In this document: positions 43,581-48,070 of the stretch, piece by piece
Layout: every line of letters begins with the position of its first letter
How positions within the stretch are numbered: the first letter of the stretch is position 1
IMG/VR virus record: IMGVR_UViG_3300048575_000503
Length of the DNA stretch: 64,000 bases
Source of the DNA: a virus
Direction: 5' to 3' (one strand)
Translations under genes and position numbers: made by a program
The notes under the pieces: generated by a model
Seen by the model: only the letters and a program-made list of their open reading frames with translations
What the model was told of the DNA's origin: nothing
Database searches by the model: none

Positions 43581-44489
43581 CTAGAAAAACTCCTGCGCGG
43601 CATGGGACTCATCTGCTGTGTACGGCGATACTCTGAAAACTATGTAGTTGTATTCGATCGGAGTTCCTTTGATTCTATCCACAACCTGCGCCGAATCAGT
43701 GTTCCAAACCATAGAGTTCCAGTCCCACTGTGATGAATCTCCCTGCGCAACAATGAAGGATCCGCAACGCAGGGGAACGGAGGTCTGACTCGAGGCAAAA
43801 TCGAGACCAAGTTTGAAGTGAAAAACTTGTTTATTTTTGTGCCGACTGAGAATGGACTGAACAACACTGGCTGTCAGCCCGACAAACGGCTTGAGCGCAG
43901 GTTGAGCTTTTGTCAAAAGCCCCAGTCCCTCTTTGAATGGACCACTCCCAATCGCGCTGAGAATGCTCTCGTCGTCCTTACTGCTAACGTTGATGGTCTT
44001 TCCTTCGAAGGCGATGCCATTTTCGCCGACCGAAACTCCGAGGAAAATTGGAGAGCCGGCTATAGCTGCACTTGCCCGATCATTAGCGTTGGTAGTCAAA
44101 ACGAACCGTAATTCCTCCGGTTCGTGCTGCAATTGATTTTTCCCTGTGAATTCACAAAGTATTTCGTGACAGCCATTACCTGGGTATTTGTGAACCCAGA
44201 ACTTTTCGAGTGTGATCTTGACCCTGGAATTTCGTAGAGCGTCGTCGGGGTGAAGCCTGAAAGCACTTTGAATTTCTGCTTGAGTGCCATGTGACTCAGG
44301 AGACAGAAAGCCGCACAGCATTCCCGTGTGTCCCCAGACCTGGCTTCCCCAAGAGATGCCCAGACCACCCTGACCAACTCCACCACTGGGAAACAGCTCC
44401 TCGACAGCTTCATCATCCCCAATTTCGCGAAGATATTTCTGGATCACATCGCGACTTTTGTCGCCGATACACTGGCTAATTGAAGGCAT
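43581..44489 (-). CDS. Uncharacterised 302-aa protein, third gene of the ATPase-protease operon
   Basis: ATG one base after the protease stop; same AT-richer composition. Confidence 0.8.
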   Translation of the reverse strand: MPSISQCIGDKSRDVIQKYLREIGDDEAVEELFPSGGVGQGGLGISWGSQVWGHTGMLCGFLSPESHGTQAEIQSAFRLHPDDALRNSRVKITLEKFWVHKYPGNGCHEILCEFTGKNQLQHEPEELRFVLTTNANDRASAAIAGSPIFLGVSVGENGIAFEGKTINVSSKDDESILSAIGSGPFKEGLGLLTKAQPALKPFVGLTASVVQSILSRHKNKQVFHFKLGLDFASSQTSVPLRCGSFIVAQGDSSQWDWNSMVWNTDSAQVVDRIKGTPIEYNYIVFRVSPYTADESHAAQEFF

Positions 44490-44490
44490 C

Positions 44491-47100
44491 TCAGGTCCTA
44501 ACTCGGGTTGGTACCCGCTGAGTTACGTCGACACGCTTGGCTCTCACGCGGGCTTCGACGTCAGTGAACAGGTCCGGCCTGACGGGTTGCGCAATTTCAA
44601 GAGTGACCGCAAGACCATATGGTACCTCTGCTCCTGCAAACGAAGTCATCTCTGCCATCGCTTGGACGCCTAGGAAAATGTCACTTGAACCGCCCTGCCG
44701 GATTAGGTTTGTTCCCTCAAACACAAGATGTTGAAGCGTACCGCGGCGGGCCGCCCGACCGTCAGGAGATCGCACTCGCCTAATGCCGTTCCAGAAATCT
44801 CGCCTGCCATCACGATCGACGACCTCGAGACGAACCCCTCGATATCGGTTAGTAATCGGGTCGATTGGACTACACCAAGCAAGCGTGACCACGACGCGAC
44901 GAAGCTCGCGGCTATTTACCATGGCGCGTGGTATAGGGAGCCTGTACTCGTGAAGCGCGTCAGGGGTTATCATATCGTCGGCGAGCAACGTAATGCGACT
45001 CCCGCTTGCTGTGAAAACCCTTAAATGATCTGGGTGGCCATACCCAAGTACACGGCTGATGGCTTCTTTCTTCCGCAATGCCCCGCCGGAGTACAATTCG
45101 TATAAGATGTCGCCTGCATCGCCCCAGGCACAGCCGTGGGCGAGTAGAGCCTTCAAAACTACTGCGCGAGTCTGGGCCTCCTGCCAGCGCTGGCCATCCT
45201 CATCAAATAGGTGTTCTAGAACGTCCACCAATCGGGCGGCTGTTCTTGTTGTGAGAGCCGCAGCGTTGCTTGTCCCGGTACAACGCCTGACGAGGTCTTG
45301 AGCTAAACTAGTACCGGTTGCAGCGACCAGTTGTCCGACGTCTGGATGATCCACTGCCCAAGCTGTTACCAATCCTGTGTCGTCTTCTGAACGGACCAAC
45401 TGCCGACCACCCAACTCGATGATGTCGGGTTTGATCGCTCTATTGAGTCCAAGCCCAATGCTTGATGCGAGGTTCGTTACGCCCGAGAGGGAGTTGAAGG
45501 GGTCCAAAAGACCCGCTGGCGTTCCTGTCGAACTGTCGCCGTGTACTGCGCCGACAGTAAGTCCGTTCAATGTTTCCGCCGGACTTAGCATCAACCGCCA
45601 CACTTTGCTCCGATCGAGTGCTTCCAGAATTATGATCTGTCGCTCCACCGGATCGGCTGCCTCGAATTCGGCACAGGTTGTGTAAGTGCCGAGAGAGAAC
45701 GGGGCTACGTTGTTTCCAGAACTAACGATGAAAAGTAGTCGGAACCGATAGCTAAGGTAATCGAGCAACTTCGCCCAGTAACTAGCACGTTGATTGAATG
45801 GAGATTCGCAGTCACAGATCGAATGGTTGATAATAACGACGCTTTCAGCCGCTGGAGCGTTGCCCTCAAGCCCCTCGATCAACGACTTCACCGCACGGTA
45901 TATGAGACCAAGCGGAAGTTTATCCTGTGGAGTACATTCTTCCGCAAGGTTCTGTGGTGCACCCAGTATCGGTACTACTTGGAGAGTTCGGTCGATCGGC
46001 CTTTGGTCGTCACCCAAATCGCCATGGATGATGAGTGATGCCATAGCTGTGCCATGTCTGCGCCGAGTTACAGGCACGTCCACCGCACGTACATCCACCT
46101 CGGTGACCCGAATTCTATTCCTCAGCAGAACATGATTCTCGACAGGGTAGCCGTCGAGGAGTGCCACCACGGGGGGTCTCGTGTCCAACGTCAGGGGAGG
46201 ACCAGTTTCGTCGGAGATAGAAGACGCATTATCGCCAACTACGCTGCTAAAGAGCGATTGTGGTCGGACGCGCATCACGCGGTCCGCAGTCGACAGGGGA
46301 CCTTGTAATGAACCGAGGCGGATAGCCTGCGCACCGGGCAGTTCGACCAGAGCGGCTTGGTATTGGATTTCTGGGATCGTCACGAAGTCGAGTAGGGTCC
46401 CAGCGACGAGCGTCATAAGCTCCACAACGTAGTCGCGTGCCGCTAACCGCAGACCAACATCGCCCCTGAACCAAAGATCAAGTTCCAATCGGACCGGGCG
46501 GTTGGGGTATTTATCCATCATGCGGTCGACGTAGCCGGACACAGCGTGATCAACGCGGTCTTTCGCCGACCAAGTCCTAATATCACTCAGGTAACCGAAG
46601 AGAGGCCACCATTCTGCATCGCTAGTTACCGGCTTCGGTTGATTAGCCGAATATTGTTTCCAGAGGGCAAGAACCTTTTGTAACCCGCTGATGGTCGGCA
46701 TAGTGATATAGAGCATGCTCTGTCCGCTGGCCGTGGCGGAAATTTTATCTTCCTCACTATCCTCATCTTCGTCCGAGTCATCTTCATCGTCTTCGAAGTC
46801 TTCGCCGAGCCACTCGAATCCAGCGGCGCGTGCCGCCGCAACGAATTTCGCCACGTTAGAAAGAGGGCCAATTACTTCGAAAACGAGCGCACGGTCAGGG
46901 GCTACTTCATAGGGAGAGGTAGATAGGTCGGAGCCGTTCAATATTTGCCCGACGCTACTCTCGATTTCTTCAAATCTAGCATTATGGCGTTCAGTCTGTT
47001 TTTCCCAAGAGATCGCCTTCGGGAATCTCGCCCGCTGTCCCTTTATTCGCGACAGCCTTGCGGGCTCTCGATTTATTCTTACGATCGGCCCCTGTGCCAT
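44491..47100 (-). CDS. S8 subtilisin-like serine protease (IetS-like)
   Basis: Asp LLDGYP, His RHGTAMASL, oxyanion Asn SSGN, Ser TGTSNAAA; start re-assigned to MAQGPIV. Confidence 0.92.
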   Translation of the reverse strand: MAQGPIVRINREPARLSRIKGQRARFPKAISWEKQTERHNARFEEIESSVGQILNGSDLSTSPYEVAPDRALVFEVIGPLSNVAKFVAAARAAGFEWLGEDFEDDEDDSDEDEDSEEDKISATASGQSMLYITMPTISGLQKVLALWKQYSANQPKPVTSDAEWWPLFGYLSDIRTWSAKDRVDHAVSGYVDRMMDKYPNRPVRLELDLWFRGDVGLRLAARDYVVELMTLVAGTLLDFVTIPEIQYQAALVELPGAQAIRLGSLQGPLSTADRVMRVRPQSLFSSVVGDNASSISDETGPPLTLDTRPPVVALLDGYPVENHVLLRNRIRVTEVDVRAVDVPVTRRRHGTAMASLIIHGDLGDDQRPIDRTLQVVPILGAPQNLAEECTPQDKLPLGLIYRAVKSLIEGLEGNAPAAESVVIINHSICDCESPFNQRASYWAKLLDYLSYRFRLLFIVSSGNNVAPFSLGTYTTCAEFEAADPVERQIIILEALDRSKVWRLMLSPAETLNGLTVGAVHGDSSTGTPAGLLDPFNSLSGVTNLASSIGLGLNRAIKPDIIELGGRQLVRSEDDTGLVTAWAVDHPDVGQLVAATGTSLAQDLVRRCTGTSNAAALTTRTAARLVDVLEHLFDEDGQRWQEAQTRAVVLKALLAHGCAWGDAGDILYELYSGGALRKKEAISRVLGYGHPDHLRVFTASGSRITLLADDMITPDALHEYRLPIPRAMVNSRELRRVVVTLAWCSPIDPITNRYRGVRLEVVDRDGRRDFWNGIRRVRSPDGRAARRGTLQHLVFEGTNLIRQGGSSDIFLGVQAMAEMTSFAGAEVPYGLAVTLEIAQPVRPDLFTDVEARVRAKRVDVTQRVPTRVRT

Positions 47101-48070
47101 CTGTTTGAGCCCCCCGCACGTCTCGACGTTTGCTCCATCGGTCGAGTGCTTGGGCGAATGCATCGCTAGGCCTCAACCCACCATGCGATAGCACAACCTT
47201 TCTGCGAGCGTCGAGCGTGACAGCTTCAATTTCCGAGAATGTTTCTCCCTGAAACATCCTAACGAAGCTGTCAGAGGTTACGCCTAGCTGCCCAAGAGTT
47301 GTCTCCGTCCTGAGAAACCATTCTCGTAGTTCGGCTACTCCCGGCTTGGGAAGCTCGACCCGTATCTCGAACCTGCGCCAGACTGCCCGGTCAAGGAGTT
47401 CGGGATGGTTGGTTGCGCAAACAACAACACAACTGCTAGGGAGGGCATCCATGTTCAACAGTAAGGAACTGACGACCCGTTTGATCTCTCCGGTCTCGTG
47501 AGCATCCGCCCGCTCTTTGGCGACGCTATCGAATTCGTCGAAGAAGAGAACGCAAGGTGTCCGCGACACGTAATCGACGACAGACTGGAGTCTAGAAGCG
47601 GTCTCTCCCAGGTAGCTTCCAACCAAACCATCATAGCGGACTGTGAAAAACGGTAGAGCAAGTTCGGTGGCGATGGTCTCGGCAAGACTGGTTTTCCCAG
47701 TGCCGGGCGGGCCAACTAATAAAGCCGTGTGACGTGGCTCAAGCGAATGGGAACGCAACAGAGCGGTTTGCCGGACTTCGTCTATCAGTTCATGTATCTC
47801 GCGCAGGATCTCCTTCCCTAGAACAAGCTGCGACAGTCGCCGCGTTGGCGCTATCTCTCGAAGTAGCGGCTGGAGGCTTTCCGGCAGCATGTTCGGACCT
47901 CCACCGTAGAATCGCTTTGGCGACTGCTCACGATCCTGGGGTCGGGCTATAGCGCTCTCTAGCTTGTTCCGGCGATGGGCCTCTTCGATCAAAGATGTCA
48001 GGACATCACGGGTCGAATCGCCATTCCCATTGTCCGGTCCTGGCTTGTGAACCGTCGTTTGTTTGGCCAT
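46991..48070 (-). CDS. AAA+ ATPase (IetA-like)
   Basis: Walker A GPPGTGKT, Walker B LFFDEFD, ATN sensor, RAVWRRF; overlaps protease start. Confidence 0.93.
   Translation of the reverse strand: MAKQTTVHKPGPDNGNGDSTRDVLTSLIEEAHRRNKLESAIARPQDREQSPKRFYGGGPNMLPESLQPLLREIAPTRRLSQLVLGKEILREIHELIDEVRQTALLRSHSLEPRHTALLVGPPGTGKTSLAETIATELALPFFTVRYDGLVGSYLGETASRLQSVVDYVSRTPCVLFFDEFDSVAKERADAHETGEIKRVVSSLLLNMDALPSSCVVVCATNHPELLDRAVWRRFEIRVELPKPGVAELREWFLRTETTLGQLGVTSDSFVRMFQGETFSEIEAVTLDARRKVVLSHGGLRPSDAFAQALDRWSKRRDVRGAQTDGTGADRKNKSRARKAVANKGTAGEIPEGDLLGKTD

Follow-up and report, generated by a model that had tools for sequence, protein, structure and literature searches.

The 64,000-nucleotide stretch of DNA of the virus record IMGVR_UViG_3300048575_000503 (herein the window, at its full length) encodes an AAA+ ATPase, a subtilase and a third protein, all on the minus strand. 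The gene ietA (positions 46991 through 48070) specifies the ATPase, which has 359 amino acids (aa) and both Pfam and PADLOC matches; ietS (44491 through 47100) specifies a cytoplasmic S8 subtilase of about 869 aa, counted from its residue M22; and the third gene (43581 through 44489) specifies a 302-aa protein whose AlphaFold2 (AF2) model contains a C2-like β-sandwich. A sequence-only reading of the window had listed an AAA ATPase, an S8 protease with an intact Asp/His/Asn/Ser set and a 302-aa gene starting one nucleotide (nt) past the protease stop, and all three are found where it had placed them. The locus is best explained as a three-gene subtype of the IetAS toxin–antitoxin/anti-phage module, carried as prophage cargo at the integrase end. 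IetAS, also called Gao_Iet or IteAS, comprises the ietA-ietS pair of Agrobacterium pTiC58 and the anti-phage system reported by Gao et al. in 2020.

Both enzymes match the PADLOC IetA and IetS models best, which bears out the IetAS-type assignment of the earlier reading. IetA matches Pfam AAA (4.1e-33) and PADLOC IetA (PDLC04232, 2.5e-114); its Walker A motif is GPPGTGKT (residues 120 through 127; nt 47690 through 47713), and its Walker B motif spans residues 176 through 181, with the DE pair at 179 and 180. The longest open reading frame (ORF) for IetS runs from 47163 to 44491 and encodes 890 aa; it matches PADLOC IetS (PDLC04233, 2.5e-243) and Pfam Peptidase_S8 (7.9e-13). The real start of IetS is probably M22 at position 47100, because the PADLOC profile match begins at residue 22 and residues 1 through 24 are disordered in the AF2 model (predicted local distance difference test [pLDDT], 80.9; predicted template modeling score [pTM], 0.85). 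The model comprises an N-terminal α/β domain (residues ∼25 through 300), the S8 domain (∼330 through 715) and a C-terminal β domain (∼720 through 860); a sequence search found no solved relative of IetS. D337 (codon at 46153 through 46155), H370 (46054 through 46056), N484 (45712 through 45714) and S632 (45268 through 45270) are invariant in an alignment of 19 homologs. The Walker motifs of IetA and the subtilase catalytic set of IetS are thus intact. Scores against the NCBIfam equivalogs of the experimentally tested anti-phage IteA and IteS fall below the cut-offs (IteA, NF042959, 232 versus 510; IteS, NF042956, 52.7 versus 900).

The third gene follows ietS without a gap to speak of. The junction reads AGGA-CC-TGA-G-ATG: the ietS stop TGA lies at 44491 through 44493, and the ATG of the third gene begins one base past it. 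The AGGA, read directly from the sequence as a ribosome-binding site (44496 through 44499, minus strand), lies inside the 3′ end of ietS and 6 nt upstream of that ATG. At the other junction, ietA and ietS overlap by ∼110 nt. Within this overlap (46991 through 47100) the 3′ end of ietA encodes a lysine/arginine-rich tail and covers the probable ietS start in another frame, an arrangement common to the nearest relatives (loci L001 through L005) and absent from more distant loci.

Conservation and setting of the three-gene unit

Loci encoding relatives of the third protein were collected by scanning one genome per species, followed by tblastn with the IetA and IetS of the window. Of the 42 genome loci with a relative, 36 show the series IetA, IetS, third gene in the same order, on the same strand and with the same spacing; each of the remaining six is a truncated copy, a remnant or the end of a contig. 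In related loci whose start call leaves no doubt, the third gene begins −4 to +24 nt from the ietS stop. The trio also occurs on two viral contigs of IMG/VR and on a plasmid of Rhizobium leguminosarum, whose annotation names the products ATP-binding protein, S8 family peptidase and hypothetical protein. Trio loci span Alpha- and Betaproteobacteria, and the flanking DNA is unrelated between loci except for close relatives; the trio therefore moves as a unit. Searches of the plasmid collection matched only two records, tblastn of the phage collection gave no match, and no integrase similar to those of the window was found in the flanks of related loci. The three genes almost certainly form one conserved, translationally coupled unit, and the proposal of the earlier reading that a normally two-gene system has here a three-component variant is upheld.

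Some loci have decayed. In L010 and L034 the third gene is intact, and the protease gene ahead of it is truncated or residual. On the chromosome of Mesorhizobium sp. L-8-3 (L021:5427-7974), the reading frame of IetS breaks in two at about residue 555, probably as the result of a frameshift, and the third gene downstream is intact.

The reverse test covered 401 genomes from the class of a related genome, of which seven have an IetS-like gene. Six of these encode proteins 30 to 35% identical to the IetS of the window; IetA lies upstream in five, and a contig end truncates the sixth. Within 1.5 kb downstream of these six ietS genes there is neither a relative of the third gene nor any other coupled gene. 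The PADLOC IetS model scores the two-gene forms (962 to 974 bits) above the three-gene forms (808 to 831 bits). Because distant IetAS pairs lack the third gene and PADLOC scores two-gene forms higher, sequence comparison places the three-gene form in a distinct IetAS subclade; PADLOC has no model for the third gene, and current tools would report such loci as plain two-gene IetAS.

The cassette also differs from its surroundings in composition. Across 43500 through 48500 the guanine-plus-cytosine content is 0.50 to 0.58, versus 0.65 to 0.69 in 39500 through 43500 and 0.68 to 0.71 in 48500 through 49500, so the higher AT content noted in the sequence-only reading holds against both sides. The position given there, between early genes and an integrase, is likewise confirmed: a phage-type sliding clamp, a single-stranded DNA-binding protein and a deoxynucleoside monophosphate phosphatase are encoded on one side, and on the other lies a minus-strand tyrosine integrase gene (48401 through 49759; Pfam DUF6538 and Phage_integrase; PHROG 1 integrase, 6.7e-24), which bounds the cassette and marks the prophage end that bears the cargo. 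In the region 48401 through 51747, two DUF6538-type tyrosine integrase genes adjoin each other in divergent orientation, and a portal gene (51893 through 53137) comes after them. On the early-gene side, a plus-strand ORF of 194 aa (42996 through 43580) is convergent with the third gene and ends exactly at its end; it has no match in Pfam or PHROG.

Fold of the third protein and its modeled docking to IetS

The third protein has no match in Pfam (E up to 0.1), PADLOC, NCBIfam or PHROG, and its 124 close homologs (290 to 320 aa, mostly from Alpha- and Betaproteobacteria) are all without a name. A profile search of PDB sequences gave a single chance match (E 0.22). The AF2 model, built with 22 sequences (pLDDT 79.6, pTM 0.80), consists of two N-terminal helices (residues 10 through 32), a flexible linker of low confidence (∼33 through 55) and a β-sandwich (57 through 290), which is interrupted by a helical hairpin (171 through 215; nt 43845 through 43979) with pLDDT <50 at residues 184 through 201. 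The β-rich character and the helical pair named in the sequence-only reading are therefore both present in the model.

Structural comparison suggests a likeness to C2 domains. A Foldseek search of the PDB returned nothing at E 0.001 or better, and searches of the AlphaFold DB and the Atlas returned only unnamed relatives of the same family. In an exhaustive VIA search the 50 best matches are all C2 domains, with a best Z of 7.2, in a range (Z <8) where, by the tool's own caution, a match may reflect only a common arrangement; the best matches superpose with a root-mean-square deviation of 2.9 over 106 residues (5dfz_A) and 3.4 over 118 residues (cPLA2).

The strongest family signature lies in the hairpin and reads G-L-x-L-L-x-x-A-Q-P-A-L-K-P-F; G188, L189, L191, Q196, P197 and P201 are present in all 117 of the close homologs aligned (117/117). 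The hairpin motif and H108, D173, N219, Q249, W257 and N281 are also invariant across a diverse sample of the wider family, and G188 and P197 are kept even in its enzyme fusions. Because the motif is retained across the family, including fusions and members not linked to S8 proteases, the hairpin is intrinsic to the domain and not an IetS-specific site. The Q-P-A-L-K-P-F segment was considered as the IetS cleavage site and rejected, since it is equally conserved in CHAT-linked relatives and enzyme fusions and the model of the complex does not put it at the protease.

That complex was predicted in three runs from residues 290 through 890 of IetS and the third protein, with alignments for both chains. 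The score is 0.65 (median of the three runs), versus 0.00 in all three controls; in the calibration of the tool, 58 of 80 complexes of solved structure reached the mark, as did 2 of 110 mismatched pairs. Agreement between the runs covers at least 65% of contacts, and the partner has a pLDDT of at least 73. Confident contacts on the third protein fall at residues 10 through 15, 30 through 32, 34 through 50 and 253. Residues 34 through 50 (nt 44340 through 44390), the predicted docking and cleavage site, thread the catalytic cleft of IetS, with G39 touching D337, H370 and S632 and residues 40 through 43 touching the oxyanion residue N484. On the strength of this model, we consider it probable that the third protein engages the active site of IetS.

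The segment in the cleft carries a motif, G-G-x-G-Q-[GSA]-[LFM], with G39-Q40 encoded at nt 44370 through 44375. Within a linker that is otherwise variable and of low confidence, G39 is found in 113/117 and Q40 in 111/117 close homologs; Q40 is followed by a small residue and then by Leu, Phe or Met. The Gln-centered motif occurs in 17 of the 18 representatives of the S8-linked clade versus 6 of 121 elsewhere in the family, a pattern that was defined post hoc on related sequences and is indicative only. The linkers of CHAT-linked relatives differ from the Gly-Gln linker. The earlier suggestion that the third protein is the protease substrate thus agrees with the modeled linker in the IetS cleft; the cut is predicted in the N-terminal Gly-Gln linker (residues ∼36 through 43) and not in the helical pair.

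The wider family and the proposed role of the third protein

An exhaustive, profile-free search recovered 383 cluster representatives of the family (at 50% identity), 142 of them at E 1e-30 or better. In some members the whole module forms the C terminus of an LCAT-type α/β hydrolase (lipase), of a phospholipase-C-type phosphoesterase (222 bits) or of neutral ceramidases. Other fusions involve a VgrG3-type C-terminal domain with LysM, leucine-rich repeats, and a C25 peptidase match that is weak and falls slightly short of the cut-off set by Pfam.

We looked up the genomic contexts of twelve distant members, counting a protease within ∼6 kb, and a protease lies near the relative in eight. One context has an AAA+ and S8 pair directly upstream of the relative, in an island with a CBASS system; another has S8 and C14 peptidases nearby. 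CHAT proteases accompany further members, as CHAT-NB-ARC-TPR in one context and CHAT-TPR in three, one of which also has a trypsin. An EAD1-trypsin gene directly follows the phospholipase fusion, and a CHAT-NACHT gene lies 1.7 kb from the lipase fusion. The co-occurrence of homologs with proteases, which the sequence-only reading had set beforehand as a check, is thus seen with S8, CHAT and trypsin enzymes. The same neighborhood pattern is described for bacterial gasdermins (10.1101/2021.06.07.447441) and for Pepco, EACC1, MBL and α/β-hydrolase effectors (PMC12642450).

On a metagenomic contig (L043:9061-12328) the AAA+, S8 and third-gene trio adjoins a CBASS-like pair (a Cap15-type effector and a CD-NTase) and a Schlafen/AlbA_2 gene, a typical defense island. 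CHAT-TPR proteins of 1200 to 1665 aa pair with distant relatives of the third protein at L045:7001-11604, L057:1895-6425 and L058:1784-7969; the CHAT proteins of L045 and L057 have no PADLOC match at E 1e-5 or better, and the pairs look like uncatalogued protease–effector defense candidates.

From the modeling and the comparative genomics we propose that the third protein is a dedicated substrate of IetS. IetA would restrain IetS until infection, by analogy with two-gene IetAS (PMC13069673); upon infection IetS would cut the third protein at the Gly-Gln linker, and the cut would remove a 4-kDa N-terminal helical peptide from the 28-kDa C2-like β-sandwich. The freed sandwich, with its conserved hydrophobic hairpin, would then attack the cell membrane and kill or arrest the infected cell; this last step is suggested because of the analogy with gasdermin, Pepco and EACC1 and because of the family's fusions to lipases, phospholipase C and ceramidases. 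The model of the complex and these analogies leave the chances evenly balanced that IetS cleaves the third protein and thereby activates it as an effector. That the membrane is the target of the effector we put forward only tentatively, by analogy. Protease-licensed death effectors are in themselves an established logic (PMC12642450; 10.1101/2021.06.07.447441).

Several observations weigh against this proposal. The resemblance to C2 domains stays below the Z 8 line (best 7.2). The hairpin is mildly hydrophobic and weakly amphipathic (hydrophobic moment 0.34), and no 19-residue window of the third protein reaches transmembrane hydrophobicity (maximum Kyte–Doolittle mean 1.22), which rules out a classical transmembrane segment. 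The amphipathic quality that the sequence-only reading ascribed to the helical pair is accordingly weak; the motif of the pair is family-wide and occurs also without S8 linkage, and the further idea that the pair could insert into membranes stays a guess. On the side of cleavage, solved subtilisin–inhibitor complexes could bias the prediction toward a loop in the cleft, although each of the three controls came out at 0.00; the loop, being rich in Gly, could be cut poorly and act as a pseudo-substrate inhibitor; and the contrast in the Gln motif carries the post hoc character described above. No protease was seen in 4 of the 12 distant contexts, two of them on cut or short contigs. Finally, the protease of two-gene IetAS is toxic by itself, as cited in PMC13069673, so that an extra effector is not strictly needed.

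The main rival explanation makes the third protein a pseudo-substrate regulator (a second antitoxin, a decoy or a sensor). Its Gly-Gln linker would block the IetS cleft, and a phage trigger that binds or displaces the sandwich would free IetS to cut cellular targets. The geometry of the modeled docking would suit an inhibitor no less than a substrate. Glycine-rich residues on the P side make poor substrates for typical subtilisins, given the specificity of S8 enzymes, and the linker has such residues. The survival of the third gene without an intact protease in the decayed loci L010 and L034 is what antitoxins often show; it is also expected of a latent effector. The toxicity of IetS alone in the two-gene system (PMC13069673) would likewise suit a regulator. 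However, IetA already serves as antitoxin, and the relatives are linked to serine proteases (S8, trypsin) as well as to cysteine proteases (CHAT, C14) and occur in fusion with lipid hydrolases, a pattern that a portable effector or cleavable module fits better than a dedicated inhibitor. We therefore hold an inhibitor or sensor to be unlikely, and more serious than the two lesser rivals, a zymogen and an uncleaved adaptor.

As a zymogen, the third protein would be an unrecognized enzyme or ligand-binding module that IetS activates by cutting it and whose target is not the membrane. The family-wide invariance of H108, D173, N219, Q249 and N281 would fit an active or binding site, yet no likeness to any enzyme fold was found, the top structural matches all being noncatalytic C2 domains, and the fusion partners are themselves the enzymes, which suggests that the module provides targeting or gating and not catalysis. 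We regard this as improbable. There is similarly little chance that the protein is an adaptor that stays uncleaved, its C2-like sandwich bringing IetS, and IetA with it, to a target or to the membrane. The likeness of the fold to a C2 domain, the fusion to enzymes that act on lipids, where targeting is the usual task of a C2 or PLAT-type domain, and the modeled binding to IetS would all agree with such a role; against this, the predicted interface consists of the catalytic cleft and the conserved linker and not of some surface remote from the active site, and an adaptor has no need for a cleft-filling motif that varies with the class of protease. A chance neighbor that merely happens to follow IetAS, the least probable case by far, is excluded by the co-occurrence data (the same order and spacing in 36/42 loci of Alpha- and Betaproteobacteria with differing flanks, and the trio on viral contigs and a plasmid) and is contradicted also by the complex model that passed its controls.

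Relation to known systems

The ATPase–protease pair and the logic of proteolytic licensing are known; the partner family is undescribed. Taken beyond the single locus, the substrate–effector reading would make the module a widespread class of C2-like, protease-licensed death effector, interchangeable among IetAS (AAA+/S8), CHAT-STAND and EAD-trypsin immune systems and fused to lipid hydrolases, in which a cut in the linker frees a membrane-attacking sandwich; we offer this generalization as a possibility that is rather less than even. A survey of protease-associated effectors recognizes ten families (MBL, α/β hydrolase, Pepco, EACC1, PCaspase, bGSDM, CATASP, MPE, CalpT and Csx30; PMC12642450); IetAS is not mentioned there, and no family among the ten answers to a C2-like protein of 290 aa. 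C2 domains, lipases and ceramidases are not mentioned in such a context in the 2020 survey of conflict systems (PMC7159879), and a literature search of incomplete coverage, which is no proof of absence, found neither a C2-like protease-associated effector nor a three-gene IetAS of this type.

The mechanism of IetAS, a catalogued system of phage defense and plasmid stability, is still described as unknown (PMC13069673). The subclade offers a testable output for it, namely a candidate substrate, the motif at which it is predicted to be cut and a fragment that may be the effector. If the proposal is true, an IetAS system would gain its first mechanistic output and the protease–effector modules an eleventh family, and the proteolysis-gated effector logic of gasdermin, Pepco, EACC1 and MBL would extend to a C2-like fold. 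The third protein in any case defines an unannotated family of 383 clusters that recurs next to proteases of the S8, CHAT and trypsin kinds and in fusion with lipid enzymes. Current annotation would label the locus of the window as two-gene IetAS and miss its third component, and the CHAT-TPR gene pairs that PADLOC misses are flagged as candidate defense systems.

Like IetAS, the locus has an AAA+ ATPase gene followed by a gene for a cytoplasmic S8 subtilase on a mobile element, with Walker and catalytic residues intact. It differs in that the canonical system has two genes, whereas here a coupled third gene follows that PADLOC does not model, and in that its proteins score far below the NCBIfam equivalog cut-offs. 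A closer parallel in gene number is ietHAS (Liu-DS4), an IetAS variant that has an additional SNF2 helicase gene and depends on it for function (PMC13069673). Both are three-component variants of IetAS; the extra gene of ietHAS is an upstream, antitoxin-like helicase, whereas that of the window is downstream and encodes a nonenzymatic β-sandwich protein predicted to lie in the protease cleft.

With the C2 domains of eukaryotic proteins (cPLA2, PLC, synaptotagmin and perforin), the third protein may share, judging by its model, an eight-stranded β-sandwich topology; some family members are fused to lipases or phospholipases. The similarity is modest (Z at most 7.2) and does not extend to sequence, and the third protein has a 45-residue helical hairpin inserted in the sandwich.

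The bacterial gasdermins (10.1101/2021.06.07.447441) are latent proteins of ∼250 to 300 aa encoded beside proteases (CHAT, C14, subtilase) that are often fused to TPR or NACHT sensors. The third protein is likewise encoded next to a protease, S8 in the window and CHAT or trypsin beside distant relatives, and activation is expected in both cases by one site-specific cut, which for the third protein is a prediction. The predicted cut differs in that it removes an N-terminal and not a C-terminal peptide. No gasdermin match was found in Pfam or PADLOC at E up to 0.1, and none stands among the Foldseek or VIA matches listed, an absence that does not exclude the family.

Pepco and EACC1 (PMC12642450) resemble the third protein in function as proposed here: they are nonenzymatic, are associated with a serine or cysteine protease of a STAND-type defense system and are licensed by one cleavage, and for EACC1 an N-terminal autoinhibitory piece has been proposed (PMC12642450). 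The 302-aa protein has no match to the Pfam models of Pepco (Trypco1/2) or EACC1 at E up to 0.1 and lies outside their size of ∼110 to 120 aa. Both are small proteins of other folds (Pepco has 117 aa, and EACC1 is cut into pieces of 5.7 and 7.1 kDa), whereas the family of the third protein is ∼290 aa long and C2-like.

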